Source: a virus. Taken from it: a stretch of DNA of 64,000 bases. Shown here one piece after another: positions 3,745-25,987 of the stretch (positions are counted from its first letter, which is position 1; every line of letters starts with the position of its first letter). Position numbers and translations under genes: made by a program. The stretch lies in UHGV virus genome UHGV-1455077, one strand, 5' to 3'. The notes under the pieces were generated by a model. The model had not been told where the DNA came from, searched no databases, and saw only the letters and a list, made by a program, of their open reading frames with translations.

Positions 3745-4055
3745 ATTTATGTATTATTTCAGTCGCAGTCATTTCTGTTGCAAGGATAACTGTTTCCCCA
3801 CTAAACATAAAAGCCTTCATCCGTTAGGATTAAGCAGCAATTACATTATAGTTATAGTTAACGTTTTCGTTAGCATTCATTTTATTTTGAACCGATATTG
3901 GTGGTATCTCGCCAGGTACATTATAGCCATTTTCAATAATGTTCAAAATTCCGTCCGCCCCTAATACATTGATTTTTCATAATATTTTCCTGGTGGAGCG
4001 GCTGGGAGTTAAACCCAGGTCACTATCATTTACTTTGGGATAATTTATCAGCACC
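3745..4055 (-). ncRNA. ssrA: tmRNA (ssrA-like), apparently circularly permuted (two-piece). Acceptor piece ends with CCA at 3981; coding piece starts GGGGCGG at 3951; tag ORF at 3874..3829.
   Basis: - strand reads ...CCTGGGTTTAACTCCCAGCCGCTCCACCA (T-arm, 3' acceptor strand, CCA), almost identical to the E. coli ssrA 3' end CGGGTTCAACTCCCGCCAGCTCCACCA. After 30 nt it reads GGGGCGG (complementary to CCGCTCC with one G-U). Then GCT AAC GAA AAC GTT AAC TAT AAC TAT AAT GTA ATT GCT GCT TAA = ANENVNYNYNVIAA*, and GCTGCTTAATCCTAAC resembles E. coli GCAGCTTAATAACC. Exact 5' and 3' boundaries not determined. Confidence 0.6.
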
Positions 4056-4064
4056 ATTCAAAAT

Positions 4065-4095
4065 TATTTATAAATTATTTTATTTTAATTGTCAA
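4065..4095 (-). promoter_or_regulatory. sigma70-like promoter (TTGACA-N16/17-TATAAA) oriented into the tmRNA gene
   Basis: - strand TTGACAattaaaataaaataattTATAAA. Member of a recurring intergenic TTGACA...TATAtt motif family. Confidence 0.4.
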
Positions 4096-4156
4096 TAAAA
4101 TAATTTAGGACATAAATACAGTTATAAGCAATTCACAAATTTAATAAAGGATTATA

Positions 4157-4960
4157 ATGATATATTATGTTTATCAAATAACAAATAAAATTAATAATAA
4201 AATTTACATTGGAAAAAGAAAATATAAAGGAGAAAATCCTTTATTAGATTCATATATGGGGTCAGGAAAATTAATTAAAGAAGCAATTAAAAAATATGGA
4301 AAAAATAATTTTCAAAAAAATATTATTCAAAGTTTTGATAATGAAAATGATGCTTTTAAATTAGAAAAAGAACTTGTAACAAAAGAATTCTGTAACAGAA
4401 AAGATACTTATAATATTCACGAAGGTGGTACAGGAAGTTTTTCTCACATTAATAATAAACCAATTGAAAAAAGAGAAAATATTATAGCTGTTAGAAAATT
4501 ATTAAATTCAGGAGTAAAATTTGGTGGAAAAAAATATTTTACAGAAGAAACTTATCAAAAAATTAGTAATTTTAATAAAGAACGATGGAAAACTTGGAAA
4601 GAAAAACCAGAATTAATGCCAGATTTTTATATAAAACCTCGTACAGAAAAATTTAAACAACATTTATCAGAAATTTTTAAAGGTCAAAATAATCCTAATT
4701 TTGGTAAACATTGGTATATTCATAAAAAAGCTATTAATATTAATGAAAAGAAAATGTTTTTTGATAATGAAATACCACAAGGTTTTATTACAGTAAAAGA
4801 ATGGAAAGATTTACATAAAAATAAGAAAAATAAAGCATATGGAAAACATTGGTATAATGATGGTAAACAAAATTATTTTTTATCCCCAGATGATGAAAAA
4901 ATTAAAATATTAAGTAAAGGGCGTATTGGTACTCTTTTTAAAAAAATTGAAAGTAATTAG
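4157..4960 (+). CDS. GIY-YIG family homing endonuclease (freestanding)
   Basis: N-terminus IYYVYQITNKINNKIYIGK...KYG matches the GIY-YIG module (compare I-TevI GIYQIKN..KVYVGS). 267 aa, Lys-rich C-terminal DNA-binding-like region. Confidence 0.7.
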   Translation: MIYYVYQITNKINNKIYIGKRKYKGENPLLDSYMGSGKLIKEAIKKYGKNNFQKNIIQSFDNENDAFKLEKELVTKEFCNRKDTYNIHEGGTGSFSHINNKPIEKRENIIAVRKLLNSGVKFGGKKYFTEETYQKISNFNKERWKTWKEKPELMPDFYIKPRTEKFKQHLSEIFKGQNNPNFGKHWYIHKKAININEKKMFFDNEIPQGFITVKEWKDLHKNKKNKAYGKHWYNDGKQNYFLSPDDEKIKILSKGRIGTLFKKIESN

Positions 4961-4997
4961 AAAAAGATTTATATTAAATTTTAATGGTTCAAAGTTT

Positions 4998-5113
4998 ATT
5001 CGTTTTGCAAGCTGGTGGTAATTGGAATGATTCATCTAACTACGGAGTTGGTTCACGTAATAGTAACAATTCCCGTGCTAATTTGAATGACAATAACTCG
5101 GTGCGGGGCTTGA
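4998..5113 (+). repeat. DGR template repeat (TR)
   Basis: attcgttttgcaagctggtggtaattggaatgattcatctaactacggagttggttcacgtaatagtaacaattcccgtgctaatttgaatgacaataactcggtgcggggcttga. Matches the reverse complement of 6675-6790 except at 18 TR-adenine positions and one T. In the target frame TR encodes QAGGNWNDSSNYGVGSRNSNNSRANLNDNNSVRGL (Asn AAY-rich). Confidence 0.85.
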
Positions 5114-5119
5114 TATAAT
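5111..5119 (+). promoter_or_regulatory. extended -10-like element TGATATAAT at the TR 3' boundary (possible RT promoter)
   Basis: cttgaTATAATc immediately after the TR/VR homology ends; about 120 nt upstream of the RT start. Confidence 0.25.
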
Positions 5120-5238
5120 CTCTTTTTTGAGCATTAGCTGAATTTTGAACCTTGTCTTAACAGGCTAAACATCAAAAACCAAAAAATAATATTAGTAAAA
5201 GAATTTGAACATATTATTTTTTATTAAGAGTAAAATAA

Positions 5239-6570
5239 ATGAAAAGAATTAATAATTTATGGCACGAATTTACTTCTCAAGAAAATTGGTTTATTGCTCG
5301 TAAAAGAGCTTTACAAGGCAAAGTTAAAAAGTTTTGTGTAAAAGCTATTATGAGAAAAGGTGATGAGTATTTAGAAAAAATTCGCCAAGAAGTAATTAAT
5401 GGAACTTTTGAATTTAAAGGTTATAAAGAACATACAATTTATGAACCTAAAGAAAGAAAAATATATGTTGCTCGGATTGAAGAAAGAATTTATCATTGGG
5501 CATCAATGATGATTGCTGAACGAATTTTTGAGCCAACATTTATTTATGATAGTTATTGTTGTCGTAAAAATAAAGGTCAACATAAATGTTCTGCCAGATG
5601 TAAAGAAATTGTTAAACATAATGATTATTGTTTAAAATTAGATATTTCAAAATTTTATCCAAATATTAATCATAACATATTAAAAGATTGTTTAGCAAGA
5701 AAAATTAAAGATGTAAAATTTTTAAATGCTTTATATGCTATTATTGATAGCCATAATAAAGATACTGGTAAAGGAATACCTATTGGAAATTATTCCTCGC
5801 AATTTTTTGGCAATATTTATATGACTAAATTGGATATGTTTGTTAAACATACTCTAAAATGTAAAAATTATTTAAGATATTGTGATGATTTTTGTCTATT
5901 TTCTAATGATAAAAAATACTTAAATTGGTGCAAAGAAAAAATAATTGAATTTGTTACTAATGAACTTGATATGAAATTAAGTAAATGTGATTTATTTAAA
6001 ACAAAGCAAGGTGTAGATTTTGTTGGATATAGGCATTTTCCACAATATACTTTAGTTAGAAAAAGAACTGCTAAAAAAGTTAAGAAAAGATTATTAAAAA
6101 TTCAATATAAATTGAATAATTGTAATCTTACACAAAAAGAACTTTTTAGAATGAATGGACAAGTTGCCAGCTCTTATGGTTGGTGTAAACACGCTGATTC
6201 ATATAGATTTATGAAAAAATATAAAATAGAAGAAAGCTTAAGGGAGATAATTATGAGATATTCAGAATTTAAAAATAAATTACATACAAATAAAATGTTA
6301 TCAATGAAAATAAACGATTTTATTAATAAAGAAATTACAATAACTGGTTGGGAATATTGTAAAAAGAAAGATGATGATGAAAAAGTTAAAACTGTTAAAA
6401 TCTTTTTACGTTATGATAATGAAGAAAAAATCATTATTACAAAAGCATCAGTTATTATTCGTGATTTAGAAGAAATTTCTCAATTAGAAAAAGAAGAAAA
6501 TACAAAAATATTTCCTTTTGAAACTGTATTGAAAAAAGATACAAAACGGAATTATTTTTATTTTGAATAG
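5239..6570 (+). CDS. DGR reverse transcriptase (Brt-like) with ~110-aa C-terminal extension
   Basis: Collinear with Bordetella phage BPP-1 Brt. N-terminus MKRINNLWHEFTSQENW vs MGKRHRNLIDQITTWENL. IYEPKERKIY vs VYEPKPRLIS. YDSYCCRKNKGQHK vs YTYACRPDKGTH. LKLDISKFYPNI vs LKSDFSKFFPSI. DGR-specific GIPIGNYSSQFFGNIY (IGxxxSQ replaces QGxxSP). Catalytic RYCDDFCLF (YxDD). GVDFVGYRHFP thumb motif. Confidence 0.85.
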   Translation: MKRINNLWHEFTSQENWFIARKRALQGKVKKFCVKAIMRKGDEYLEKIRQEVINGTFEFKGYKEHTIYEPKERKIYVARIEERIYHWASMMIAERIFEPTFIYDSYCCRKNKGQHKCSARCKEIVKHNDYCLKLDISKFYPNINHNILKDCLARKIKDVKFLNALYAIIDSHNKDTGKGIPIGNYSSQFFGNIYMTKLDMFVKHTLKCKNYLRYCDDFCLFSNDKKYLNWCKEKIIEFVTNELDMKLSKCDLFKTKQGVDFVGYRHFPQYTLVRKRTAKKVKKRLLKIQYKLNNCNLTQKELFRMNGQVASSYGWCKHADSYRFMKKYKIEESLREIIMRYSEFKNKLHTNKMLSMKINDFINKEITITGWEYCKKKDDDEKVKTVKIFLRYDNEEKIIITKASVIIRDLEEISQLEKEENTKIFPFETVLKKDTKRNYFYFE

Positions 6571-6660
6571 AGTTGGGCATCACAAGGATGCCCTGCTTAT
6601 AGTATTAAGACCGCACAAGGCGGTCTAAAAAAGAAGGATTTGAGTTTATCACTCAAATCC
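6571..6660. promoter_or_regulatory. three consecutive hairpins between the convergent RT and target genes, immediately 3' of VR
   Basis: gggcatcacaaggatgccc (7-bp stem), agaccgcacaaggcggtct (7-bp stem), ggatttgagtttatcactcaaatcc (10-bp stem overlapping the target stop codon). Confidence 0.5.
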
Positions 6661-7728
6661 TTTAGCATTAGCTGTCAAGCCCCGCACCGAGCTACCGTCA
6701 AGCAAACTAGCACGGGAATAGTCACTCACACGCGAACCAACCCCGCAGTTAGATGAATCACCCCAATAACCACCAGCCCGCAAAACGAATCCTTCACCGT
6801 AAAAAGAACCTTTACCCATATCAGTATTAATTACTGTCCAACCACTTCCACCAGATGCACCAGTTGAATTTAAATATTGCCATAAAGCACCACAACAATC
6901 TTCAATACCATAAACAGAAATCATTCTTCTGCCAGCAGTATCTACGTGTCCACCAGTTGTTACAGGGTCAGCCGCACCTGAAATTGCAGTTCCTTGATTT
7001 GAACCAAATGCATAAACAGTAAATTCATTATCATTTGCTAAATGTTTTCCAACTGAAAATAAATCTTCAACGTGATTTTGATAATAACGTGTATCTGTAA
7101 TTGTACCACCAAATACTGATTTTGTATTTAAACCAGTTCCTGATTGTAAATAAATATCACACCATTTATCAATGGCATCAATATATGCCATACCATCAAC
7201 ATCAGCAAATCTCGGACGGAATGAAATACAAGATACTGAATTTGGTAAAATATCACCTGCATTATATCCTGATAATAAATGACCAGAAATAGTTCCAACA
7301 TTTGCACAAACAGTATGGAATGAAGATAGCCATTGAGTATTTGCTGTGGTATAACCAGTTGGAGCATCCGCATTTAATGAACAAATTAATTCTTTATCAG
7401 AAGTAATATAAATGTAATAAGTTTTTCCTGCCTGTAATGATGAACCAGTATCTAATATTGAAACAGGATTAATTTCTTTTGCTTCATAATTTTCATAATT
7501 AACCAATTCATTATTAAATACTAATGGAATATTACAAGGTTCAATAACAATTGTAGATTTATCAAAACAATTAGTTTTTCCTAATCTAAATAATTGTGCG
7601 TATGATTTACCTTTAATTGTAGTATCTAATTCTTTAATATGAACAAATCTAAAAGTTGGAGCAAATCCGCCTAATAAAGTTTGTAATCCATATATACGAT
7701 TTAATTGTACTTTTGAAATATCTATCAT
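6649..7728 (-). CDS. DGR target (variable) protein; C-terminal C-type-lectin/FGE-like fold carrying the VR; probable receptor-binding (tail fibre tip) protein
   Basis: 359-aa ORF whose last ~40 codons (FVLRAGGYWGDSSNCGVGSRVSDYSRASLLDGSSVRGL) are the VR. C-terminal GG.W...G pattern typical of CLec-fold DGR targets. AATAAATA late box upstream (7754-7761). Gene has noticeably higher GC than its neighbours. Confidence 0.8.
   Translation of the reverse strand: MIDISKVQLNRIYGLQTLLGGFAPTFRFVHIKELDTTIKGKSYAQLFRLGKTNCFDKSTIVIEPCNIPLVFNNELVNYENYEAKEINPVSILDTGSSLQAGKTYYIYITSDKELICSLNADAPTGYTTANTQWLSSFHTVCANVGTISGHLLSGYNAGDILPNSVSCISFRPRFADVDGMAYIDAIDKWCDIYLQSGTGLNTKSVFGGTITDTRYYQNHVEDLFSVGKHLANDNEFTVYAFGSNQGTAISGAADPVTTGGHVDTAGRRMISVYGIEDCCGALWQYLNSTGASGGSGWTVINTDMGKGSFYGEGFVLRAGGYWGDSSNCGVGSRVSDYSRASLLDGSSVRGLTANAKGFE
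6675..6790 (-). repeat. DGR variable repeat (VR) at the 3' end of the target gene
   Basis: Sense strand attcgttttgcgggctggtggttattggggtgattcatctaactgcggggttggttcgcgtgtgagtgactattcccgtgctagtttgcttgacggtagctcggtgcggggcttga. Identical to TR except where TR has A (18 sites) plus one T-to-G. GC-rich 3' end ctcggtgcggggcttga shared with TR, then the sequences diverge. Confidence 0.85.
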
Positions 7729-7753
7729 TCTAATACCTTTTGCTTATATCAAA

Positions 7754-7761
7754 TATTTATT
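7754..7761 (-). promoter_or_regulatory. late-promoter-like AATAAATA box upstream of the DGR target gene
   Basis: - strand ...tttcAATAAATAtttgatataagcaaaaggtattagaATG. Confidence 0.4.
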
Positions 7762-7766
7762 GAAAT

Positions 7767-7800
7767 AAAAATCCACCAGCAATATTGCTGGTGGATTTTT
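7767..7800 (-). terminator. hairpin aaaaatccaccagcaatattgctggtggattttt with flanking A/T runs (bidirectional)
   Basis: 12-bp perfect inverted repeat between 7827..8228 and the DGR target gene. Confidence 0.55.
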
Positions 7801-7826
7801 TAGTATAACAACAATGAAAAATTTTA

Positions 7827-8228
7827 TTACTTTTCTTTTTTAATCAATTCAATCGTCTGTTTACCAAGTTCAGTAATCATTGATTTAACAATATCTTCTT
7901 CGGTTTCACAACGATATTCATTATAAGAACCTTCAGCATTGTGATATTTTAAATTACAAACTATTTCTTCTAAATCTTCAGATGGCAATGTACTTTCATA
8001 AACTTCATCTGTATGTTTATCTTTAATAAAAATTGTAAGTTCATATTCATCTAAATGAGCTTCAATGATTTCAAAATCATTTGACAATTTCATAGGAAAT
8101 GTCTGCTCTACCCCATTAACTGTTTTAACTTCGGTTGAATTGCTAAAAGCAAACCAACTGACACAGCCAACCAAAAATGCAACTAAAATTGTTAAACCTA
8201 AAACCTGAATTTTTTTAATCATCTTCAT
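7827..8228 (-). CDS. putative lipoprotein
   Basis: N-terminal signal peptide with lipobox LVGC (MKMIKKIQVLGLTILVAFLVGC). Confidence 0.5.
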   Translation of the reverse strand: MKMIKKIQVLGLTILVAFLVGCVSWFAFSNSTEVKTVNGVEQTFPMKLSNDFEIIEAHLDEYELTIFIKDKHTDEVYESTLPSEDLEEIVCNLKYHNAEGSYNEYRCETEEDIVKSMITELGKQTIELIKKEK

Positions 8229-8410
8229 TTTTTTTATTCCTTTTCAAAAATACCTTTATAATTACGATATGAATATTTGTCGTTTGGATTAAATTTACAA
8301 CGATAAAATCCATTAAGTTTCTTTAGCCATTTAGCATAATCACGTTTTTCTTTTTCTTTCTGTTTTTTCAATTTTTCTTCTAATGTTTTTTCTTCCATAG
8401 CATACTCCTA

Positions 8411-8692
8411 TTATTTTTTAATAATTTTTCCAATTGAGCGAATACCATAATCCAACTCAAAAGGTATATTTTCGACTGAATTATACTGATATTCAACAAC
8501 ATAATTATTAGTATTGTATTTTTGATACAATCCTCTAATTTTAAAAGATGCATTAACCATTTTCCGACTTCCAACAACCATATTATATGGAATCGTTTCA
8601 ACAATCTGTCTGGTTTTAATATCTTTTATGATAACATTACCAATGATTCTTTGAAGTTTCATCATTATTCCCCTTTCTTTAACAATTACCAT
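8411..8692 (-). CDS. hypothetical protein
   Basis: 93-aa ORF; the overlapping 8380..8604 alternative is less protein-like. Confidence 0.35.
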   Translation of the reverse strand: MVIVKERGIMMKLQRIIGNVIIKDIKTRQIVETIPYNMVVGSRKMVNASFKIRGLYQKYNTNNYVVEYQYNSVENIPFELDYGIRSIGKIIKK

Positions 8693-9168
8693 TCACAATC
8701 ATCATCGTCAGACCAATAATCTGACTCGTCATCATCTTCTCCCCACATCTCATCAGCTTTTTCGGCAAATACCAAACGAGAATCATCGGTATTTTTTTCT
8801 TCAAAAATAGAAGGATTTTCTTTTACATAATTTAAAACATCTTTCGTCAACTGATTTAAAGAATTTTCATAATCATCATCATTACTATTAAAATAATATG
8901 AAGTCATTTTACTAATTTGATTTTTAAATCCTTTATCTGCCAAATAAAGAGCATCACTACCACAAGTTTCTACTCCATAACCAACAAAAAATTTATCTCC
9001 ATCGTTCCACCAACGATACCCAAGACGATTAATTGCACGAATAATCTCACCACCAACTGTTTCACACATCCCAACTTCTGGAACATATTTTTTAAACAAT
9101 TCAACAATTTCATCATCAATTGCTTGTATTTCTTTTTTTGATAGTTTTTCCATTATTTTTCCTTTCAT
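8686..9168 (-). CDS. hypothetical protein, acidic C-terminus
   Basis: 160-aa ORF with RBS-like aaaggaaaa upstream. Confidence 0.45.
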   Translation of the reverse strand: MKGKIMEKLSKKEIQAIDDEIVELFKKYVPEVGMCETVGGEIIRAINRLGYRWWNDGDKFFVGYGVETCGSDALYLADKGFKNQISKMTSYYFNSNDDDYENSLNQLTKDVLNYVKENPSIFEEKNTDDSRLVFAEKADEMWGEDDDESDYWSDDDDCEW

Positions 9169-11026: not shown

Positions 11027-11102
11027 TGGCACTCCCAGAGGGATTCTAACCCCCAATTTAACGTCCGTAGCGTTATGGTTTATACAATTAGCCTATGGGA
11101 GC
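11027..11102 (-). tRNA. tRNA-Arg (anticodon ACG), CCA encoded
   Basis: GCTCCCA acceptor paired with TGGGAGT. Anticodon stem TAACG/CGTTA, loop CTACGGA. T-arm GGGGG-TTAGAAT-CCCTC (non-canonical T-loop). 3' GCCA. Confidence 0.5.
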
Positions 11103-11107
11103 GTTTT

Positions 11108-11569
11108 TTATTTACCCCAAAGTTTATTTTGAGCCAACATAACAACATTACCTAATCTTTGTTTAGCAGTTTCTTCATCAATTTTTCCATCTTCCATTGC
11201 ACGATAAATTTCTTCTGCTTTAATTGTTAACTCATCATTTTCTGGTAAATTAGCATTAATAAATTGTAATTGCATCCAAGGATTAACATCAGAATCAAAA
11301 GGTTTTCCTTCTAACAATTTTTTAATAACTGGGTCAGAAATTTCATTTAATTTTGTTTCCATTTCAAAACTTTCTGTTAATTTAGAATATACGCCATCAG
11401 CTAAACCTTCTGCCATTTCAGCATTTTTTAATTTAGCATCTTCAATAACTTTTTCTATTTGGTCAACTGATTTATTTTCAACAATAAATTTACGACCATA
11501 AATATATCCAAATGAGTAATCTCTTGATTTGTCTTTAATTTGTGAAACATCCATAATATTATTCTCCAT
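11108..11569 (-). CDS. hypothetical protein
   Basis: 153-aa ORF. Confidence 0.4.
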   Translation of the reverse strand: MENNIMDVSQIKDKSRDYSFGYIYGRKFIVENKSVDQIEKVIEDAKLKNAEMAEGLADGVYSKLTESFEMETKLNEISDPVIKKLLEGKPFDSDVNPWMQLQFINANLPENDELTIKAEEIYRAMEDGKIDEETAKQRLGNVVMLAQNKLWGK

Positions 11570-11594
11570 TATATATAGTAATATTTATGAAATA

Positions 11595-11954
11595 TTAACA
11601 CGAACGATTTTTTATATGATTAATTAATTTATCAAATGTATCAAAATTCCAATAATCATATCCATAAGATAAAATAAAATCTTTATGAAAATATCCATCA
11701 GATTCTAATTGATTATTAATTTCTTTTAATAATCTTAATTGTTCTCTTGTTTGAATATATCGGTAATCAACCATTAATGTTTGATTGCCATTAACAATTC
11801 TAATCCAGCCTAACTCTAAAGTTTTTGTAGTGGCATCTTCATCACTATCATATGTTTCTCCTAATAAATTTTCAATAAATTTTTTATGACCAAAATCATT
11901 CATTATTGTATAAATTTTGTTATCAGGAGAAATCCAAAATCCATAAGGTTTCAT
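11595..11954 (-). CDS. hypothetical protein (position matches the clamp-loader small subunit of T4-like phages; no sequence support)
   Basis: 119-aa ORF immediately downstream of the gp44-like gene; sigma70-like promoter at 11988-12016. Confidence 0.35.
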   Translation of the reverse strand: MKPYGFWISPDNKIYTIMNDFGHKKFIENLLGETYDSDEDATTKTLELGWIRIVNGNQTLMVDYRYIQTREQLRLLKEINNQLESDGYFHKDFILSYGYDYWNFDTFDKLINHIKNRSC

Positions 11955-11987
11955 TTATATCCTTTAAAAAATAAGGTTATCTAAAAT

Positions 11988-12016
11988 ATGATAACCTTAA
12001 TATAACATATAAATTT
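11988..12016 (-). promoter_or_regulatory. sigma70-like early promoter
   Basis: - strand TTGACAaaagaaatttatatgTTATATTaagg. Confidence 0.35.
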
Positions 12017-12032
12017 CTTTTGTCAATAGAAA

Positions 12033-12986
12033 TTAGCTTTCTAATATAAATTTAATTTCAATTAAGCAAGAAATAAAATTAATATCAGGAAATGCAACAA
12101 AATTATGTTGATATAAATATTTTGCAATAGTTATTAAAATCTTATCATATTTTTTAACATCAGTTGATATTAATTCCAAATGATTATACATAAACTGATA
12201 TAATGGTTCATATTCTTCCATAGCAATTGTTTGTGCTAATTTTTGTTTCATTGATAAGCAAGACATTGTAGATATATTTGTTACAATATCACTAAATTTA
12301 TCAAATGAATATGCGGCATCATTATTTAATGGTTGAAGAACATTATTAATTGTATTTTGGTCAATTGCATTAATGCAAGCTCTTAAATCTGGCTGATAAA
12401 CTTCAACATATTTAACAACATCATTCATATTTTGAACTGTAATTTTTTCATCTTGTAAAATTGTTGCAATTCTTCCAACAAATTCTTCAAATTTTAAAGT
12501 ATTAAAATGATAACGTTGACAACGAGAAGTTATTGCTTCATCAATATGTGAAATATTGTTAGTTGTTAAAATAAATCTACACCAATTTGAATATTCTTCC
12601 AAAACAAATTTTAGCGAACTTTGAGCTTGCTTTGAAGCTCTTTCAAATTCTTCTAAAATAACATATTTAATAACTCCTTCTTGAAATGGTGGTACAGAAG
12701 CATAATCAATTACTTTACGCATATCATCAATAGAAGTTTTATCTGACATATTAAAACGAACATAATCAACAAGTTTTAATTCATTTATTAAAACATTAAT
12801 TGATGAAGATTTTCCTGTTCCAGGAGGCCCAAAGAAAATTAAATGTGTATCAATTTGCCCATTAGCAACCCAACTCTTAAATTTATTCTCATATTCATCA
12901 TTAATAAATACCAAATCATTTACAGTTTTTGGTCTATATTTTTCAGTTAATATCTGATTCATTTTTCCCCTCATTAAGATGTTCAT
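12033..12986 (-). CDS. clamp loader large subunit (RFC-like AAA+ ATPase, T4 gp44-like)
   Basis: LTEKYRPKTVNDL (RFC box II), Walker A FFGPPGTGKSS, DEAD-like ILEEFE, SRC-like TSRCQ. Confidence 0.8.
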   Translation of the reverse strand: MNILMRGKMNQILTEKYRPKTVNDLVFINDEYENKFKSWVANGQIDTHLIFFGPPGTGKSSSINVLINELKLVDYVRFNMSDKTSIDDMRKVIDYASVPPFQEGVIKYVILEEFERASKQAQSSLKFVLEEYSNWCRFILTTNNISHIDEAITSRCQRYHFNTLKFEEFVGRIATILQDEKITVQNMNDVVKYVEVYQPDLRACINAIDQNTINNVLQPLNNDAAYSFDKFSDIVTNISTMSCLSMKQKLAQTIAMEEYEPLYQFMYNHLELISTDVKKYDKILITIAKYLYQHNFVAFPDINFISCLIEIKFILES

Positions 12987-13215
12987 TTAATTTATCCATA
13001 AAATTATACCATACATTTGCATCGGTTAAATCACCAATTCGTTGCATTTCAGACGCTTCAACAATTTCTTTAATCATTGATTTTAAGCAAAATTCAGACA
13101 AATTAGTTAAACCAATTTCATTAATAACATAATCACAAAATGTTTTAGGAGCATATGTACTTCTTCCTAAACAATATCTAAATGCAAACGTTACCATTAA
13201 TTCTTTATCATTCAT
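12943..13215 (-). CDS. hypothetical protein
   Basis: 90-aa ORF overlapping the start of the clamp-loader gene. Confidence 0.35.
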   Translation of the reverse strand: MNDKELMVTFAFRYCLGRSTYAPKTFCDYVINEIGLTNLSEFCLKSMIKEIVEASEMQRIGDLTDANVWYNFMDKLNEHLNEGKNESDIN

Positions 13216-13227
13216 TATCTTAATTCC

Positions 13228-13662
13228 TTAAGAATTTTTATCATTTTCTTCAATAACTTCTAAAGGTTTTGTATCAAAAGAACAACTAACACATAAAGCA
13301 ACTGCCGTCAAATTATAATTAGATATTTTGCCTTCATTGTCAACTTCTCCTATACCAGTTGCACAACAATATACAGGCATTTTTTTATTAGAAATGACAT
13401 CATTAATAGATGCAACTATAATATCATTTTGACTATCAAATGTTGACCCTTCAATCCATAATTCATTGTTTTCAATATATGCTTTTTCAATTTTTCCACA
13501 AATATTATCAAAATCATAAGGGTCATCTGGTAATTCATACAATAGAGGAATATCATTTTCTTGAATATCTTGGTATACTTTTTCAATAATTTCTTGTGAA
13601 TAAATTCTACCATTAGCATTTATTTTGTCTGCTTGAAAACAGCAACTCTTAAATTTTACCAT
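13228..13662 (-). CDS. hypothetical protein
   Basis: 144-aa ORF. Confidence 0.4.
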   Translation of the reverse strand: MVKFKSCCFQADKINANGRIYSQEIIEKVYQDIQENDIPLLYELPDDPYDFDNICGKIEKAYIENNELWIEGSTFDSQNDIIVASINDVISNKKMPVYCCATGIGEVDNEGKISNYNLTAVALCVSCSFDTKPLEVIEENDKNS

Positions 13663-13664
13663 TA

Positions 13665-13946
13665 TTATACCTCACAAATTTGTTGAATATCAATTACATC
13701 TATAACAATAGATGCATCACCTTTAATATAGTTTTCTGAATAATCAATATCAAAACCTTCATCTTTCATTGCTTGTAAAAATCTACGTTCATTAACATCC
13801 TCAACTTCACAAACTTCTTCTACCATTTTCTTTGTAATTAAAATAGTATTTAATCTTCCAGACCCTCTACAATCCATCTGTTGTATTGGAACATAGATTA
13901 TATTTCCACGATAAGGAATTTTACAACGTATTAAATAATTTTCCAT
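13665..13946 (-). CDS. hypothetical protein
   Basis: 93-aa ORF. Confidence 0.4.
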   Translation of the reverse strand: MENYLIRCKIPYRGNIIYVPIQQMDCRGSGRLNTILITKKMVEEVCEVEDVNERRFLQAMKDEGFDIDYSENYIKGDASIVIDVIDIQQICEV

Positions 13947-13952
13947 ATATTT

Positions 13953-14315
13953 TTACCCTATAAAAAATAGTGTTGCTAAACTTATACCTATAATTGATAA
14001 AATTGTCAATATAATTGTTAAAAATGGATGAGATTTCTTCTTTCTTTGACCATACCAGTTTTCCCAATTTTTTTGAACAAAACATTTTAATTCAGTATCA
14101 TTTGGTAAATGGTCTTTTCCAAATAAAGCATATAATTCTGGATATTTTCGTTTATCAAAAATTTTATTTGGTGTCCATTTAATAAAACTTTCAGGAACTG
14201 CTCCATCAACATCCATTGTAAAACCAATAGGTGTGGTATCTTCAATAGGTTTATTTTTATTAAAATCCCACAAATCTTTTCTTTTAGTGGCTTTAATAAC
14301 AGTAATTCTTTCCAT
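13953..14315 (-). CDS. hypothetical membrane-anchored protein
   Basis: C-terminal hydrophobic helix FLTIILTILSIIGISLATLFFIG. Confidence 0.4.
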   Translation of the reverse strand: MERITVIKATKRKDLWDFNKNKPIEDTTPIGFTMDVDGAVPESFIKWTPNKIFDKRKYPELYALFGKDHLPNDTELKCFVQKNWENWYGQRKKKSHPFLTIILTILSIIGISLATLFFIG

Positions 14316-14329
14316 TGATTTAATCCTTG

Positions 14330-14740
14330 TTATATATTATTAAATATTCCAAATACTTTTTCTTTTTCCCAACAAGCAACTGACCCATCTTCACGACCAT
14401 CAGGAAGTTTAAAATATCCTGTTTCTCTTAAAACATCACCTAATGAAGTATATACAAAATGCCATCCTTGTTCTTTTAATTTATTAATTTTTTCTTCTGA
14501 ATCTTTTAAATAATCAATCCATTCTTGATTAAAGGGTAATCCATATTTTTCTGAATCTTCTTTTTGAACTTGAATTTCTTCTTCAATACTTCTAAAATCA
14601 TCTGGAACAGCTAAATCAAATTGTTCTGTATAAACTTCCCATTCTTCAAAATCAGGATATTGTTGTTTACATTTTTCAATTTCTTTTAATAAGGTTTTAA
14701 TTTTCATCTGATACTCTCTTAGCGTGTATTGTTCCACCAT
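14330..14740 (-). CDS. hypothetical protein
   Basis: 136-aa ORF. Confidence 0.4.
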   Translation of the reverse strand: MVEQYTLREYQMKIKTLLKEIEKCKQQYPDFEEWEVYTEQFDLAVPDDFRSIEEEIQVQKEDSEKYGLPFNQEWIDYLKDSEEKINKLKEQGWHFVYTSLGDVLRETGYFKLPDGREDGSVACWEKEKVFGIFNNI

Positions 14741-15166
14741 CTGCCATTACTTTTGTAACTTCAAATAAAATTCCAGAATCTGAATAAAATCTTAATCCTT
14801 TTTTAATAAGGCTTGGAAATAATTGTTTTCTAAATTTCATTTTTGAAGATGAATGATAATACAATGATTCCCAATAATATTCTAATTCTTTAGCATCATC
14901 ATTTGATATTACAACATCATAATATAATGCTCTTTCTTTTTTTGAAAATAACTTTTTTAACCAATTAATCATCGTTTTCTCCTATTAATGCTTGTCTAGC
15001 AACTTCTCCTCTATCTCTAATTTTTTCAATAATTCTACTACCGCCATTCATATAAGCATATTTTAATGTTTCAGTATCGTACTCAATATGACCACATCCA
15101 GCATAAAATCTTAAAGCTTTTTTATATCGTTCAATAGTTTTTAATAATTTATTTAAATCAGTATCC

Positions 15167-15544
15167 TTACTCATCTTCAATTCCAAATTCCTTAAGTTGC
15201 TGGGGCATAATTTTAGAAACTGCCATTAATCCTTCTTTAATTGATTTAGGAGAAACATACCATAATGTTTTATCTTCACCTTTAATTGTCATTGCCATAG
15301 ATGTACTCCAATGACCGTGCCGTAATAATATCCAATCCCCAACATTTACATAATTAATATTAGAAGCCTTATAAACAACTTTTGCCCATCGTGGTCTTGC
15401 AAATCTTCCTTCATAATCCATTTGTTCAGGCGGTAAAATAAAACCAGATTTTAAAGTTCTTTCTCCATATTCAATATTTTTAACAAATAATGAATTTGGT
15501 AAACATTCAATATAATTTGGTATAGTTACTCCATAATCAATCAT
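15167..15544 (-). CDS. hypothetical protein, possibly a GroES/gp31-like co-chaperonin
   Basis: GFILPPEQ...ARPRWAKVV...VGDWILL resembles the GroES mobile-loop and body pattern (GIVLP...GEVVAVG...VGDKVLF); weak. Confidence 0.3.
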   Translation of the reverse strand: MIDYGVTIPNYIECLPNSLFVKNIEYGERTLKSGFILPPEQMDYEGRFARPRWAKVVYKASNINYVNVGDWILLRHGHWSTSMAMTIKGEDKTLWYVSPKSIKEGLMAVSKIMPQQLKEFGIEDE

Positions 15545-15546
15545 TA

Positions 15547-15906
15547 TTAATCCTTATCTTCTTTAATTTCCGAATCCATAATTACTTCTTGAACTTCTTT
15601 CTTTTTCTTTGGCGTTGCAACTTTAATTGTTTGATTTTCAATTAAAGATTCAACAGTTAATTCTTTTAATTCATTTTCAATTTGTTCATTAGCATTAGAA
15701 TCTTTTAAATTAACTTGTGCTTGTTGCATTGTATTAGCATTATAATACTTTTCTAACATTTCTTCACGAGTTTCAATAATTTTTCCACCCTTACCAATTC
15801 TATCTCCACGCCCATTCATATGTGCATTTCCTAATGCAATTGTTTTTTCATTTTTCTTAGCTAAAGAAACCATATCAACTTCTTTACCTCTATAACTTTT
15901 AACCAT
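15547..15906 (-). CDS. hypothetical Lys-rich protein
   Basis: 119-aa ORF. Confidence 0.4.
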   Translation of the reverse strand: MVKSYRGKEVDMVSLAKKNEKTIALGNAHMNGRGDRIGKGGKIIETREEMLEKYYNANTMQQAQVNLKDSNANEQIENELKELTVESLIENQTIKVATPKKKKEVQEVIMDSEIKEDKD

Positions 15907-15915
15907 TTTTTCTCC

Positions 15916-16467
15916 TTATAAATCATATATATTAAATATATCATCAATATTAAAATATTTCAATAACCAAATATTTTTTGATGAAAATATAAAATTATTA
16001 TTTTCTCTTAACAGTTTTTTATCACTATCTAAAGTAATTAATAATGAGTCAGTATTCGGCCCTGTCATTAATTCAATTTCATATTTAGAAAATATTTTAT
16101 CGGGATATTTGTTTTCAATAAATTTTATACATTTATTAGCAAATTCTCTTTTTGTTGTCGAAACATATAAAAAAGTGTTAGTTGGAATGGGATATATCCC
16201 ATATCTTACCCAACCATTATCAAAATCTTCATATGTAAAAGAAAACTCATCATCACTATGTGTTTGTCCATCTTGTAATTCTATTATTTCACCAGATAAA
16301 ACATTATAAAATCCTGCGATTCGGTTAATACCAAATTTTTTTTCAAAAAGATTATAAAATTTTACTTTATTTTTACATCCTGCAATTTTTAATATTGAAT
16401 CAATTTCTCTATTAATTTTAAATTGTTCATCAATTAAAATGTTTCTATTCATTATTGTCCTTATCAA
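15916..16467 (-). CDS. hypothetical protein
   Basis: 183-aa ORF. Confidence 0.4.
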   Translation of the reverse strand: MIRTIMNRNILIDEQFKINREIDSILKIAGCKNKVKFYNLFEKKFGINRIAGFYNVLSGEIIELQDGQTHSDDEFSFTYEDFDNGWVRYGIYPIPTNTFLYVSTTKREFANKCIKFIENKYPDKIFSKYEIELMTGPNTDSLLITLDSDKKLLRENNNFIFSSKNIWLLKYFNIDDIFNIYDL

Positions 16468-16702
16468 ACATTTTACAATGACAATGACCTGTTTTTTCCA
16501 TATCTTCTTGAATGAATATACAAGGACATTTAATATCTTCTAATTCATCAGGTTTATTTTTTTGATATATAGCATATTTACAAGGACAATAACCATCACA
16601 TTTATTAACAGCATCATACATTTTATCAAAAATTTTACCTAACTTATAACCATTTTCATCAGCATAATTTTTATACCATTCTTTTGTATGTAAATCATTC
16701 AT
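16445..16702 (-). CDS. ferredoxin-thioredoxin reductase catalytic-subunit-like (FtrC-like) Cys-rich protein
   Basis: YCPCKYAIYQKNKPDELEDIKCPCIFIQEDMEKTGHCHCKMF matches the FtrC CPC-x16-CPC-x9-CHC-x-LF cluster (compare Synechocystis LCPCRHYEDKEAE...WNCPCVPMRERKECHCMLF). Confidence 0.5.
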   Translation of the reverse strand: MNDLHTKEWYKNYADENGYKLGKIFDKMYDAVNKCDGYCPCKYAIYQKNKPDELEDIKCPCIFIQEDMEKTGHCHCKMFDKDNNE

Positions 16703-17207
16703 TATCTTTTTCCTTTATTTCTAATAAAGAATTTACATCAAAAATAAAACCTTTGCAATATAATTCTCTATTTTCATCATCTTCATCACTTGAATCTTCA
16801 TCAAAAATATTAAACCATATACACGGAATATTTGTTTCATATTCAAATTGAACACCTTGTGGATGTTTAATAGTAATATATGGTAAACATTTATGTCTGC
16901 TATTGTTTATAACCTTCTCAATAGTATCATACAAATCATAAAACTCATCTTCAACATAATTTAACAATTCATCAATTCTGCTTGAAGAAACAAAAGCGTT
17001 GCTATCAGAAAACCAATTTAGCTGTACATTATAAAAACAATCATATTCTTCATTTAAAGCACCAACTAATTCAAATAAATCATCAGAAGCACCAAATGCT
17101 ATGACAACATTATCATTTTTTAATTCATCCATACATTCATAAATAATATCTGTTTGGTCATACTTAAGACCATCAAATTTTTCTTTCCATTTTTGTAATT
17201 TATTCAT
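16695..17207 (-). CDS. hypothetical acidic protein
   Basis: 170-aa ORF. Confidence 0.4.
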   Translation of the reverse strand: MNKLQKWKEKFDGLKYDQTDIIYECMDELKNDNVVIAFGASDDLFELVGALNEEYDCFYNVQLNWFSDSNAFVSSSRIDELLNYVEDEFYDLYDTIEKVINNSRHKCLPYITIKHPQGVQFEYETNIPCIWFNIFDEDSSDEDDENRELYCKGFIFDVNSLLEIKEKDNE

Positions 17208-17940
17208 TTATTCTCTCCTTAGCGATATTAAAATAATTTTCATCTAACTCAATTCCAATGAAATTTCTGTTTAAATTTTTACAAGCTAAACCTGTTGTTC
17301 CACTTCCCATACAGAAATCTAATACTGTATCTCCTTCATTAGTATATGTCTTAATTAAATATTCCATTAATGCTAATGGTTTTTGAGTTGGATGTAAATA
17401 ACAAGTTTGTTTATCACTTTTAAAAATTAAATGATTTCTCGGAAATCTATCTGTATTACCGCCCCCTGAAATTTCTTTAGAGCAATTTCCATAAACAACA
17501 CTTTTATTAACAGTTTTTAAATATTTTGTATATGAATTTATTGGTTTATGCCCATCAGTTTTTTGAGGATTATACATACATTGCTTTTCATAAAACACTA
17601 ATATTTCTTCAATACATCTTAATGGTTGTTTTTTAGCATTAAGAAAACCTGTTGCTTGAGTTTTCTCCCAATACCATTTATACTTAAAATTATCATTTGA
17701 AGAAATTAAATATGATGCGTATGGTTCTTGTGCAAATAACAACATAGGACTTGTTTTATCTGTTAATAAATTTAAACAATTCCACATTGAAGAAATATCA
17801 ATCATTTTATCCCATTTACATTTTTTATTTAATATTTCATACGGCGGGTCAACCATAACAGCATCAACTTTAATTCCTTTATCAATAAGTTGTTGCATTA
17901 CTTCTAAACAATCGCCTTGATATAAATCAATTTGACTCAT
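17200..17940 (-). CDS. beta-class N6-adenine DNA methyltransferase, CcrM-like
   Basis: LYQGDCLEVMQQL...DAVMVDPPY (motif IV near the N-terminus). C-terminal HPTQKPLALMEYLIKTYTNEGDTVLDFCMGSGTTGLACKNLNRNFIGIELDENYFNIAKERI closely parallels the CcrM motif I/FxGxG region. Confidence 0.75.
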   Translation of the reverse strand: MSQIDLYQGDCLEVMQQLIDKGIKVDAVMVDPPYEILNKKCKWDKMIDISSMWNCLNLLTDKTSPMLLFAQEPYASYLISSNDNFKYKWYWEKTQATGFLNAKKQPLRCIEEILVFYEKQCMYNPQKTDGHKPINSYTKYLKTVNKSVVYGNCSKEISGGGNTDRFPRNHLIFKSDKQTCYLHPTQKPLALMEYLIKTYTNEGDTVLDFCMGSGTTGLACKNLNRNFIGIELDENYFNIAKERINE

Positions 17941-18857
17941 ATCATTGCTCCAAATAAAGTATTATAAGCATCATCTAATTCTTTTCTTTTTTGTTTTTCT
18001 TCTTCAGATATTTCTCTTTTAAACCATTCTTCATCAAAAGAAGTTTCCCAAGTATCCGTATCTAAATAAAACATTGGATTCCAATTATAATCTTCTCCAT
18101 ACCGAACATAACCTCGTGGATTAGAAATAACCCGACAATTTCCAATAAGATAATTATTATAATTATGAACGTGTCCGTGAACCCAACATTTAATATTTGG
18201 ATGTTGAATAATAAATCCACCTAAATTAGAAGCATAACCACAATTAACTTTACTATCTTTATAACAAGTTGCTATTGATTGATTAGATGGAGCGTGGTGA
18301 GTAACAATTATAATATCTTTTGTTGGATTTTCTTCAACAGTTTTTTTAATAAATTCAAATGATTCATTAAACATTTGAACGTGATGGTCACCATTCAATC
18401 TTACTAATTTTTCTCCATTAAAATATTTTCCAAGACGGAAATCATTCAATCCTCTTTCAATTAATGATTTACCTCTATATGTTGGAATACCATTTAAATG
18501 GCAATTAGTATATAAAGTTGACCCAATAATCATAATATTACTATCAATAAAAGTATACACATCATTATCCAGAAATCTTATTGTACAACTTTCTGGAAAA
18601 TATTGACGAAGGTCTGCTTTTAAATCTTGTACAGATAATCCATAATTATTATATACTAAATGATTGCCAGCAACTAAAATACCATAAGGACAATTATCTT
18701 TTATCCAATCTATATAATCACGATAATGACCAGCAGTATCGCCTGCAATAAGTGTAAAAGTACCTCTATCTTTATTAGGTAACATTAATGGGTAATCTTG
18801 GTTTACATCTAAATGTAAATCACTAATTATTCTTATTTTCATTAAAATAAACTCCAT
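17937..18857 (-). CDS. calcineurin-like metallophosphoesterase
   Basis: ISDLHLD, GDTAGH, AGNHL, VTHHAP metal-binding motifs. Confidence 0.6.
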   Translation of the reverse strand: MEFILMKIRIISDLHLDVNQDYPLMLPNKDRGTFTLIAGDTAGHYRDYIDWIKDNCPYGILVAGNHLVYNNYGLSVQDLKADLRQYFPESCTIRFLDNDVYTFIDSNIMIIGSTLYTNCHLNGIPTYRGKSLIERGLNDFRLGKYFNGEKLVRLNGDHHVQMFNESFEFIKKTVEENPTKDIIIVTHHAPSNQSIATCYKDSKVNCGYASNLGGFIIQHPNIKCWVHGHVHNYNNYLIGNCRVISNPRGYVRYGEDYNWNPMFYLDTDTWETSFDEEWFKREISEEEKQKRKELDDAYNTLFGAMI

Positions 18858-19033
18858 ACAATAATAAAAATGATGATGAATAAGATAATTCTTTCCCAGT
18901 CTAATTCATCATCAAATGAATCAAATTTTCCTAATTCAATATGGAAATCTGGTTCGTCATCATCTAACATTCAATCACCATAATATATAATTTAATTTTT
19001 AATGTCAAAATATTTTTTATATTTGTTAATTAT

Positions 19034-19711
19034 CTATTTTACCAATTTTATTACATTTTCTTTAAGTTTTTCAATTGTATCGTTATTTTTAATAATATAT
19101 TTTGGATTATCATATCCGACCCATTTCCATTCAGATTCGTGAATATTTTCAAGTTTTTTCCAAAGTTCTTCTGTCATCCAATTATCCCAAGCTTTTGAAT
19201 TTTTTCCCCAATCTTCAACTTCTTTGAACCATTCAGGTAATTTACCACGTTCTACACGCCATATTTCACCACCGATATTTCTAATCATATCAATTTCATT
19301 TGGAAAACGGACATCAGTAATAACAACATTTTTATTAGTTTCCATAATTTTTCTTTCAAGACAATCAACCCAAATATTTTGATGTAATTGATTTCTTAAA
19401 AGATTTGTTCCTAAAAATTGTAATGCATATCTTGGAGTAAAATCTTTACTCATTTTATTTGACCAAAATTTATCAGGTTGTTCTCTTATAAGTCTATCTT
19501 CTGGAGTTTCACCTGCAAGCATTTTTCTATCAAAACCAAATAATAAAGATGTTACATCTTTTAAATGACTGGCAAAAGACATTTTTTCCCAGTTGGAGAT
19601 ATTACCAACAATAATATCTCCAATTGTATCTTTACCCGAACCTGCTAAACCACAAATACCAATAATTTTTTTATTCATTATTTTCCTCATTTGTTTGTTC
19701 ATACATTTCAT
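19034..19711 (-). CDS. P-loop kinase, deoxynucleoside monophosphate kinase-like (T4 gp1-like)
   Basis: GICGLAGSGKDT P-loop, as in T4 dNMP kinase GVKRSGKDT. Confidence 0.5.
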   Translation of the reverse strand: MKCMNKQMRKIMNKKIIGICGLAGSGKDTIGDIIVGNISNWEKMSFASHLKDVTSLLFGFDRKMLAGETPEDRLIREQPDKFWSNKMSKDFTPRYALQFLGTNLLRNQLHQNIWVDCLERKIMETNKNVVITDVRFPNEIDMIRNIGGEIWRVERGKLPEWFKEVEDWGKNSKAWDNWMTEELWKKLENIHESEWKWVGYDNPKYIIKNNDTIEKLKENVIKLVK

Positions 19712-20573
19712 TCATAACTCTTGTATCAATTACTATTGAAAAATCATCTAAAGGTGTAAGCCAGCTTGATTGTGGAATAACACAAATAATGTCATTAACT
19801 TTAAAACCTAATTTAAAATTAATTAAAACAACAAAGTCTTTACGGTCAACTCTTTGTATTGAAAGAGCAATATTTTCAGGGTCAAAATTATCATATACAA
19901 CTTTAATAATATTATTTAAGTTTTTCTTTGTTAATTCATCATTATATTCAACCCATTTACAATTTGTTAAAGAATAAATTTCTTTCATAATTGTTGGCAA
20001 TTGTTTTTTCATTTTTTTATTCAAATATTTAATAAGAAATCTTGTTTTAACTCGATTATCTTGATAATATTTTGGTAAATTATTAAAATATTCATTATAT
20101 TCATTTTGATTTTTATTAATAAAATCATCTAATGCAAAATCATTTACATCAATATATTTGTTTTTATCTTTTGATTCTCTACATTCAGAATAAGCAATTT
20201 TACTATTTAAATCAATAATTTGGTTAACGACTTTATTATATTCATTTTTAGTATCATTTCTGACATCATCTATAACATTTTTTCTAATGACTGGTTTTTT
20301 CTTTAACTGATGTTTGCTAAAGAATAATTTAATTTTATCTAAAAGTTGTTTAGTTTTTTGAACTTTTTTAATTTTTTTAATTGTATGATTTTCAATAGCT
20401 TTATTTAATGATTTTTGAATACCAATTAATTCATCATCCGTAATATCCATTGGATGAACACCGCTGATATAAAGAATTTCACCAAGTTCATCCATAAGTT
20501 GTTTTTCATTTTTTTTAAACATCTTATCTGCCAGTTTTTTATTATTTTTATTAAAAAATTTAAACATTTCCAT
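19671..20573 (-). CDS. hypothetical protein
   Basis: 300-aa ORF. Confidence 0.4.
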   Translation of the reverse strand: MEMFKFFNKNNKKLADKMFKKNEKQLMDELGEILYISGVHPMDITDDELIGIQKSLNKAIENHTIKKIKKVQKTKQLLDKIKLFFSKHQLKKKPVIRKNVIDDVRNDTKNEYNKVVNQIIDLNSKIAYSECRESKDKNKYIDVNDFALDDFINKNQNEYNEYFNNLPKYYQDNRVKTRFLIKYLNKKMKKQLPTIMKEIYSLTNCKWVEYNDELTKKNLNNIIKVVYDNFDPENIALSIQRVDRKDFVVLINFKLGFKVNDIICVIPQSSWLTPLDDFSIVIDTRVMNEMYEQTNEENNE

Positions 20574-20592
20574 CTCCTAAATAATTTTTATA

Positions 20593-20665
20593 TAGGCGAA
20601 GTGGGATTTGAACCCACAAAATTTAGATTTTGAATCTAACACGTATGCCATTCCGTCATTCGCCC
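20593..20665 (-). tRNA. tRNA, anticodon CAA, class I (short variable arm); identity uncertain (Leu-decoding anticodon on a non-Leu scaffold)
   Basis: GGGCGAA...TTCGCCT acceptor. Anticodon stem TTAGA/TCTAA, loop TTCAAAA. T-arm GTGGG-TTCAAAT-CCCAC. 5-nt variable loop. No encoded CCA. Confidence 0.5.
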
Positions 20666-20714
20666 AATTAGTTTATTTAGTATATCTTAAATATAAAATT
20701 AAAACAAAATATTT

Positions 20715-24743: not shown

Positions 24744-24858
24744 TTGTAATATCCTTTTTTATTTTAAAATATCATAACATTTTTTTGAATATTTGCAAGC
24801 ATTTTTTATAAAAAAATAGATATATTCACATTTAATATGCAAATATATCTATTCTTAT

Positions 24859-24945
24859 TGGTGGGCTTGGTGGGACTCGAACCCACAAGAGAATACTCCC
24901 GACAGATTTTAAGTCTGTTGCGTATACCAATTCCGCCACAAGCCC
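24859..24945 (-). tRNA. tRNA-Leu (anticodon TAA), class II, CCA encoded
   Basis: GGGCTTGTGGCGGAATTGGTA...ACAGA-CTTAAAA-TCTGT, long variable arm, GGGTTCGAGTCCCAC, CCAAGCCCACCA. Confidence 0.7.
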
Positions 24946-24957
24946 AATGTTTATTAT

Positions 24958-25045
24958 TGGTGGGCATACCGAGAGTCGAACTCGGATGGAGATTACCCCC
25001 GTCAGATTTTAAGTCTGATGCGTCTACCAATTCCGCCATACGCCC
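24958..25045 (-). tRNA. tRNA-Leu (anticodon TAA), second copy with divergent sequence, class II, CCA encoded
   Basis: GGGCGTATGGCGGAATTGGTAGACGCATCAGA-CTTAAAA-TCTGA, long variable arm, GAGTTCGACTCTCGGTATGCCCACCA. Confidence 0.65.
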
Positions 25046-25097
25046 AATTATTTTTTATGAATATATTTATATCATTTATTTTAAATAATGTCAACAA

Positions 25098-25349: not shown

Positions 25350-25395
25350 TAATTTCTCCTAATTATATAAAAATCTCCATAATTTGTATATGGAG

Positions 25396-25432
25396 ATTAT
25401 ATTATAAATTATTAATTGTCAATATATTATTT
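25396..25432 (-). promoter_or_regulatory. sigma70-like early promoter
   Basis: - strand TTGACAattaataatttataaTATAAT immediately downstream of the tRNA-Cys 3' end. Confidence 0.35.
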
Positions 25433-25519: not shown

Positions 25520-25526
25520 TATAAAA

Positions 25527-25601: not shown

Positions 25602-25603
25602 AT

Positions 25604-25985: not shown

Positions 25986-25987
25986 CT

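Follow-up and report, generated by a model that had tools for sequence, protein, structure and literature searches.

An Avd-less diversity-generating retroelement with a convergent Mtd-like target and an OB/SSB-like module fused to its reverse transcriptase in a human-gut jumbo phage

Diversity-generating retroelements (DGRs) number in the tens of thousands in gut phages (PMC8241571), while no C-type-lectin domain of the DGR type (FGS) was reported in 224 jumbo phages that were surveyed (PMC7824862). The best point of reference is the DGR of Bordetella phage BPP-1, a 42 kb temperate podovirus, which has the order mtd-avd-TR-brt (TR, template repeat; brt, the reverse transcriptase gene) and the RNA motif RT-10 between TR and brt; other RT motifs have been speculated to serve other DGRs (Weinberg et al. 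2017, PMC5737381). In their 2018 survey, Wu et al. list Avd, HRDC, MSL and CH1 as the only accessory genes, find C-terminal extensions in about 20% of DGR reverse transcriptases (RTs), unexplained and with no motif apart from MutS_I in three cases, and raise a likely Avd-independent mechanism of retrohoming as an open issue (PMC5758913). Here we describe a DGR at positions 4,998 to 7,728 of a 64,000-nt stretch of viral DNA (hereafter the window), which is the start of the 288,602-bp contig of the human-gut phage UHGV-1455077.

Taken as a whole, the locus is best explained as a genuine, active DGR of a known kind, in an Avd-less form with a convergent target, a reading to which we give a probability of about 0.93. 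It shares with the BPP-1 DGR a homologous RT, a homologous full-length target (Mtd), a variable repeat (VR) at the 3' end of that target, adenine-specific TR-to-VR differences, a GC-rich end resembling the initiation-of-mutagenic-homing (IMH) site, a TR rich in AAY codons, and a structured RNA between TR and RT. It differs from BPP-1 in having no detectable Avd and an RT with an extra OB-like C-terminal domain (OB, oligonucleotide/oligosaccharide-binding), in placing the target downstream of the RT and convergent with it rather than upstream on the same strand, in a spacer that is RT-14-like rather than RT-10, in an AT-rich, terminator-like hairpin after the VR, and in belonging to a jumbo phage of ~288 kb. 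The cassette is therefore not of the BPP-1-type Architecture B (target-avd-TR-RT), as no Avd lies next to the TR and the target is not upstream on the TR strand; it resembles instead the Architecture A DGRs of Wu et al. (PMC5758913), with a TR-RT core and no avd, HRDC, MSL or CH1 gene.

The repeats were located with a repeat finder, which returned a single long inverted repeat within positions 4000-9000, with arms at 4998-5113 and 6675-6790 (116 nt, 84% complementary), exactly where the first-pass annotation of this DNA had placed it. The upstream arm, on the + strand, is the TR and contains 31 adenines and, read in the frame of the VR, 10 AAY codons; the downstream arm, on the - strand, is the VR and spans codons 313-351 of the 359-codon target. 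Compared base by base, the two differ at 19 positions, 18 of which are TR adenines (13 A>G, 4 A>T, 1 A>C), the last being a T>G change: 18 of 31 A sites are altered, against 1 of 85 non-A sites (Fisher p 6.1e-12). The earlier claim that the copies differ almost only where the upstream copy has adenine was thus borne out, and the mismatch spectrum, tested for a loss of adenine bias, stayed adenine-specific on realignment. TR/VR homology breaks off sharply at either side, and a permissive blastn search of the TR against all 64 kb matched only the TR itself and the VR (E 1e-31), the next best match having E 0.4; 4998-5113 is the sole TR-like sequence recognisable in the window. The open reading frame (ORF) at 4984-5118 is an artefact, because the TR copies coding sequence. 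The repertoire of the TR amounts to 4.6e18 DNA variants and 7.4e14 peptide variants, and a stop codon cannot be reached by mutation from any templated TR codon.

The 3' end of both repeats is a GC-rich 17-mer (CTCGGTGCGGGGCTTGA), IMH*-like at 5097-5113 (+) in the TR and IMH-like at 6675-6691 in the VR, with 71% GC against 25.7% for the window. The most 3' A-type mismatch lies at 5096 and homology stops at 5113, so that this 17-mer forms the 3' limit of A-mutagenesis. As it is identical in TR and VR, any IMH/IMH* distinction must reside in the flanks; cases of an IMH identical in the two repeats are known (Wu et al. 2018, PMC5758913). Adenine-biased TR/VR differences are also present in relatives of the cassette (loci L004, L005 and L007), and in the related viral loci with a detected TR and VR every adenine-biased pair is in direct orientation.

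The RT is encoded on the + strand by an ORF at 5239-6570 (443 aa), whose core (5239-6243, residues 1-335) carries the IGxxxSQ motif as IGNYSSQ together with the catalytic YCDD box; the translation contains GIPIGNYSSQFFGNIY and RYCDDF, so that both motifs read earlier from the ORF are present. The asserted collinearity with BPP-1 Brt held for residues 2-287, which align with residues 3-286 of BPP-1 bRT, and failed for the last ~105 residues, which have no Brt counterpart. The protein matches Pfam RVT_1 (4e-15) and PHROGs phrog_1423 'reverse transcriptase' (5e-99), and 3,991 homologues were found. Its nearest relatives among GenBank phages by tblastn are DGR RTs, from crAss-like phages, BalMu-1, Hankyphage, Faecalibacterium phages and Bordetella phages. 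Among all PDB sequences the best match is the BPP-1 DGR RT (8ub7, E 3.5e-35), against ~1e-14 for group II intron RTs and weaker values for retron RTs, placing the enzyme with DGR RTs as had been proposed.

The target gene (6649-7728, - strand) encodes an Mtd-like receptor-binding protein of 359 aa whose C-terminal part has a C-type-lectin fold. The protein matches Pfam mtd_2nd, the Mtd second domain (6e-10), and PHROGs phrog_11262, a tail protein (2e-40), and its residues 95-337 match Mtd crystal structures in the PDB (E 1e-15). An AlphaFold2 model (pLDDT 82.6, pTM 0.84) superposes over its full length on Mtd (Foldseek E 2.5e-22, TM 0.70), followed in rank by TaqVP, FGE and TvpA; TaqVP and TvpA are DGR variable proteins, and formylglycine-generating enzymes (FGE) have the C-type-lectin fold too. 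By both sequence and fold the target is a full-length Mtd homologue with a C-type-lectin fold, and the VR sits where the first reading of the locus had put it. The gene is located at the end of a fibre-gene block: the 918-aa product of its neighbour has CBM5/12 and, at its C-terminus, a weak gp53-like match below threshold, and genes for collar and discoidin-domain proteins are directly upstream of the window. Elsewhere in the window, a 1014-aa protein (33949-36993, -) has a weak, sub-threshold match to the Mtd N-terminal domain, a pectate-lyase-like beta-helix and CBM5/12 but no VR, and from these domains looks like a second receptor-binding or depolymerase protein.

The locus had been described as a complete DGR, and as far as TR, RT, target and VR are concerned this is correct; Avd was not detected, and instead the RT ends in a fused OB-like domain. 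None of the neighbouring ORFs of 93 aa or more matched Pfam bAvd or 23S_rRNA_IVP, while the positive controls, BPP-1 Avd and BalMu-1 B51, matched bAvd at 7e-36 and 6e-42. Searching all frames of the window with BPP-1 Avd (phmmer) and with a two-sequence Avd profile gave a best E of 0.44, the remaining ~224 kb of the contig lying outside this search. A jackhmmer search started from BPP-1 Avd found none in 80 related loci either, a weak negative because Avd is poorly conserved.

The extra domain (6253-6567, +; RT residues 339-443) resembles OB-fold and single-stranded-DNA-binding (SSB) proteins. With ~105 aa beyond the thumb, the RT is like the extended DGR RTs of Wu et al. (PMC5758913); unlike their extensions, this one is a distinct OB-like module, usually encoded by a gene of its own, so that cassettes of this type may have an accessory factor after all. 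Pfam, PHROGs and NCBIfam contain no family that the module matches, we found no published description of it, and the other DGR surveys consulted are silent on accessory genes. A word-indexed protein search gave just 5 close matches, and family size was taken from an exhaustive profile search of 1.84 billion representatives. This yielded 968 members (representative clusters), 277 of them at E ≤ 1e-10, mostly standalone proteins of 95-105 aa with a few C-terminal fusions of 420-507 aa; they come from viral-metagenome contigs, of the gut and of other sources, and also from Hankyphage and a virus associated with Methanosarcinales. In close relatives whose RTs are short (340-385 aa) and whose ~36 kb contigs bear an integrase or recombinase gene, a 97-110 aa ORF overlaps the RT stop codon and matches the RT tail of the window end to end (E 2e-27, 3e-27 and 4e-19), and a standalone 111-aa version with 83% identity occurs in relatives (P0281). 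An AAGGGAG resembling a Shine-Dalgarno sequence (6240-6255, +) lies 6 nt 5' of Met339, exactly at the start of the module inside the fused ORF, so that the module might also be translated separately; this site may be a remnant of, or a signal for, such translation.

Does the module take part in retrohoming? It could be a phage gene that often stands beside DGR RTs and was fused to one by chance, with the RT and host factors, or an undetected Avd, being sufficient. Several observations agree with this: the DGR-type RTs of cr53_1 and Perkons have neither Avd nor module detectable, 29% of DGRs have no accessory gene (Wu et al., PMC5758913), and the module is weakly basic, with a pI of about 8.1-8.6 compared with 9.55 for Avd. 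Its distribution argues the other way. In a sample of 80 IMG/VR loci with RTs 34-49% identical to that of the window, the module is tightly linked to the RT in 72, standing directly 3' of it in 59, in the avd slot (upstream, between target and TR) in 12, and further downstream in 1; the 8 loci in which it went undetected add to the points in favour of chance. A standalone module also follows the DGR RT directly in an archaeal-virus candidate, the Methanosarcinales-associated Caudoviricetes sp. vir525 (L120, 3992-4279), RT fusions are found in the window, L007, L013, L014 and Hankyphage, and the module is absent from BPP-1 and BalMu-1, the two Avd-bearing controls. A module without any role in retrohoming is thus a possibility that we take seriously while holding it to be somewhat short of an even chance.

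The module is in our view the best candidate for the missing accessory factor. It could do the nucleic-acid-handling job of Avd, or bind single-stranded cDNA, and we would put the odds of this at even. The broader proposal, that this OB/SSB-like module of ~100 aa adds a fifth, so far unrecognised, class to the DGR accessories Avd, HRDC, MSL and CH1 and functionally replaces Avd in a large clade of phage DGRs, appears to us equally balanced between true and false.

Hankyphage (Bacteroides phage p00 / BX-TP1) offers a parallel to the fused arrangement: the RT of this gut phage (434 aa) aligns over 98% of the window RT, fused module included, and BX-TP1, with the order target, TR, RT, has no bAvd-type gene annotated. 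A figure in a 2025 paper labels Avd in hankyphage, which we have not reconciled with the BX-TP1 annotation. Hankyphage is otherwise unlike the present case: RT identity is just 26%, its target, on the same strand, is a very large protein encoded upstream, its spacer (L009, 3809-3958) is Rfam RT-3 at 145.5 bits, and it is a 42 kb temperate transposable phage.

Two further observations concern the module in individual loci. L097 and L098 (5398-5814), which were counted as module-less, have a 138-aa ORF ~400 nt after the RT that by eye resembles a longer, divergent module (MAKF.E..., ...FTGSDIL..., ...C/YFQFT), so that the family may exceed what the profile detects. In L019, L031 and L053 (about 4972-5024), tblastn aligns the window RT through residues 411-443, with core and module in different stop-to-stop ORFs, and in L031 the two share a reading frame; this points to an in-frame stop separating RT core and module, which could reflect readthrough, recoding or a sequencing error.

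To judge whether the DGR is active we turned to natural variation in the target. Two clusters at 90% identity hold 314 and 400 distinct target sequences, many of them from 285-290 kb contigs, and NCBI TPA records give two of the members the name 'major tropism determinant'. We compared, between samples, 29 full-length cluster members from near-identical phage genomes of ~285-290 kb. The AAY-templated codons (321, 323, 327, 334, 336, 337, 341, 343, 345 and 346) show 7-14 alleles each, and codons with A at position 1 or 2 have a mean of 7.7 alleles, compared with 1.26 for other VR codons and 1.13 for the rest of the target, where the maximum is three per site and nearly all sites have at most two. 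Because this variation concentrates at adenine-bearing TR codons, the DGR is active: the comparison provides strong natural evidence, between samples, of ongoing mutagenic retrohoming. The relatives are consistent in layout, as L004 and L005 (RT identity 90%) and L007 (56%) keep the TR-RT and convergent-target arrangement, with different VR outcomes.

A fossil cassette, formerly active and with its present TR/VR differences as relics, would account for the identity of the contig copies. The window sequence is present in JGI 3300045988 Ga0495776_098122, ENA ERZ28663558 and Logan ERR1136621, and three contigs with an identical RT show no differences across their shared 7.8-16.5 kb; these copies being identical, they carry no population signal, and the cluster members were used instead, so that the evidence is between samples rather than read-level. 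Such a relic is hard to square with hundreds of distinct VR alleles in near-identical phage genomes from many samples, when the rest of the protein has no more than three alleles per site, or with an intact RT ORF that keeps its catalytic YCDD, a TR that retains all 10 AAY codons, and VR variants none of which, among those seen, contains a stop codon. We therefore regard a fossil as very improbable.

That the RT derives from a group II intron, a retron or a defence system, and the repeat from a coincidental duplication of a coding segment, is scarcely credible: NCBIfam does give a group II intron RT/maturase as its best model (E 1.6e-31), then retron and Drt models, and returned no DGR-specific RT model, but all of these matches fall far below their cut-offs (109.7 against 300 bits for the group II model), a DGR RT is best in the PDB by 20 orders of magnitude, the protein has the IGxxxSQ motif, intron RNA domains and a retron msr/msd are absent while the only Rfam match is RT-14-like, and A-specific mismatches (p 6e-12) are unexpected for a plain duplication.

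For the active DGR we propose the following mechanism. A transcript probably starting near 4975 would carry the TR, the RT-14-like spacer and the RT coding sequence, within boundaries that we infer from sequence. The RT would copy the TR RNA into cDNA, misincorporating opposite adenines, and this cDNA would presumably integrate so as to replace the VR that the convergent Mtd-like gene carries at its 3' end, with the 17-nt GC-rich IMH-like end common to both repeats serving as the boundary. Up to 15 codons on the ligand-binding face of the C-type-lectin domain would thereby be randomised, giving ~7e14 peptides with no templated stop, and by analogy with BPP-1 Mtd this may retune receptor binding and host range.

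The 125-nt spacer between TR and RT is made up of conserved motifs flanked by stems of locus-specific sequence. Its structured part (5120-5223, +) matches Rfam RT-14 (RF02921) over the full model (positions 1-144) at 41.1 bits, below the gathering score of 48.1, with E 9e-5 to 9e-4. Like RT-14, it reproduces a 5' hairpin, a CCUU-hairpin-UAAA element and a long stem around UAGUA...GAA, directly upstream of the RT gene; unlike RT-14, its first hairpin is much shorter (4 nt against 47 in the model) and it is extremely AT-rich (24% GC), scoring below the gathering threshold. RNAalifold on MAFFT alignments of the whole spacer predicted zero pairs, and the structure was obtained by anchoring on the UAGUA motif and building a covariance model. 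The 3' hairpin (5181-5222, +) has a stem of 12 bp around UAGUA...GAA, and in the seed set each of these 12 pairs has compensatory changes. The covariance model built from that set has one match in the window and found 15 further copies in 630 kb, every one in the same orientation as the RT gene and a short distance 5' of its start. In these copies the paired cells make up 95%, compared with 54% for shuffles and 43-51% for slid controls, with 11 of 12 pairs compensatory, counts that lean towards the structure because the alignment was fitted to the covariance model. We considered whether this hairpin is an undescribed element, and an Rfam E-value scan ruled this out by identifying it as the 3' stem of the RT-14-like motif. 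The spacer is best called a divergent, AT-rich relative of RT-14, and thus a known kind of element.

Candidate signals flank the cassette on both sides. A promoter-like site, TTGAAA-17-TATATT (4947-4975, +; 10/12 in a consensus scan), lies 22 nt 5' of the TR, and its TATATTAA block is kept in L004 and L007; from the consensus match it is a candidate start of the TR-spacer-RT transcript. At the other end, a 12-bp hairpin followed by a T-run (6634-6662, -), found by a terminator scan and kept in L004, overlaps the target stop codon and begins 12 nt past the VR. In form it resembles an intrinsic terminator, and as it is placed like the post-IMH hairpin of BPP-1, it may by analogy have a role in retrohoming. 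Between the convergent RT and target genes are two GC-rich hairpins with identical ACAAG loops, at 6575-6593 (GGGCATC/GATGCCC) and 6609-6625 (GACCGC/GCGGTC). Both are kept in L004, one with a stem mismatch, and GC-rich stems occur in L007 too; these hairpins might act as a terminator, mark a processing site or serve retrohoming.

Upstream of the DGR promoter-like site, a gene for a GIY-YIG/NUMOD3 (SegE-like) homing endonuclease (4157-4960, +) separates the cassette from a transfer-messenger RNA (tmRNA) gene. L004 and L005 are without the endonuclease gene, homology jumping from window position 3915 to 4961, and the gene is thus a recent insertion beside the cassette. The tmRNA (3761-4099, -) is phage-encoded, permuted and in two pieces (Rfam alpha_tmRNA 77.9 bits, tmRNA_permuted 87.5 bits), with the tag ANENVNYNYNVIAA read from the Rfam alignment; ARAGORN made no call for this interval. 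In L004 the same tmRNA (1164-1557) adjoins the TR. A permuted tmRNA may hint at a host that has one too, for example an alphaproteobacterium.

The genome of 288,602 bp justifies the description of the phage as jumbo; the accompanying 'T4-like' label is only loosely supported by gene content and is not established. Genes for a clamp loader (phrog_168, 1.5e-58), a DnaB-like helicase and a primase are present in the window, whose 64 kb include neither a capsid nor a terminase gene. The clamp loader is closest (33-36% identity) to those of PA5oct, Vibrio 2.275.O and Rak2/121Q-type jumbo phages, with T4-like phages among its 2,508 matches. Against GenBank phages, neither megablast of 4100-7800 and 40000-64000 nor tblastn of a 603-aa ORF gave a match. 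Other genes of the window, all on the - strand, include a tRNA-His guanylyltransferase (Thg1-like; 30951-31760, phrog_4717, 7.7e-82), eight tRNA genes (Arg, Leu x3, Cys, Gly x2, Trp; 11027-26061), a 1342-aa fusion of a ResIII/DEAD helicase and an Eco57I-type methylase (20715-24743), and a phage GroEL (43146-44780, phrog_5725, 5e-152), whose matches in GTDB genomes (45-52% identity) come from scattered, unrelated lineages and give no clue to the host.

This DGR is ordinary in kind, and since bulk catalogues of gut-virome DGRs exist (PMC8241571), it has probably been listed automatically; its value comes from the jumbo-phage setting, the natural diversification data and the OB-like module. The natural diversification of an Mtd-like receptor-binding protein provides a model for host-range plasticity in an uncultured jumbo phage. 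The most useful point is that the locus draws attention to a conserved OB-like module, the likely cofactor of DGRs that have no Avd. If this is true, many DGRs classed as accessory-less would work with an SSB-like cofactor, and mutagenic retrohoming independent of Avd would become easier to approach. The fused RT-module protein, a single compact polypeptide, is a candidate for reconstitution and for tools of DGR-based mutagenesis.

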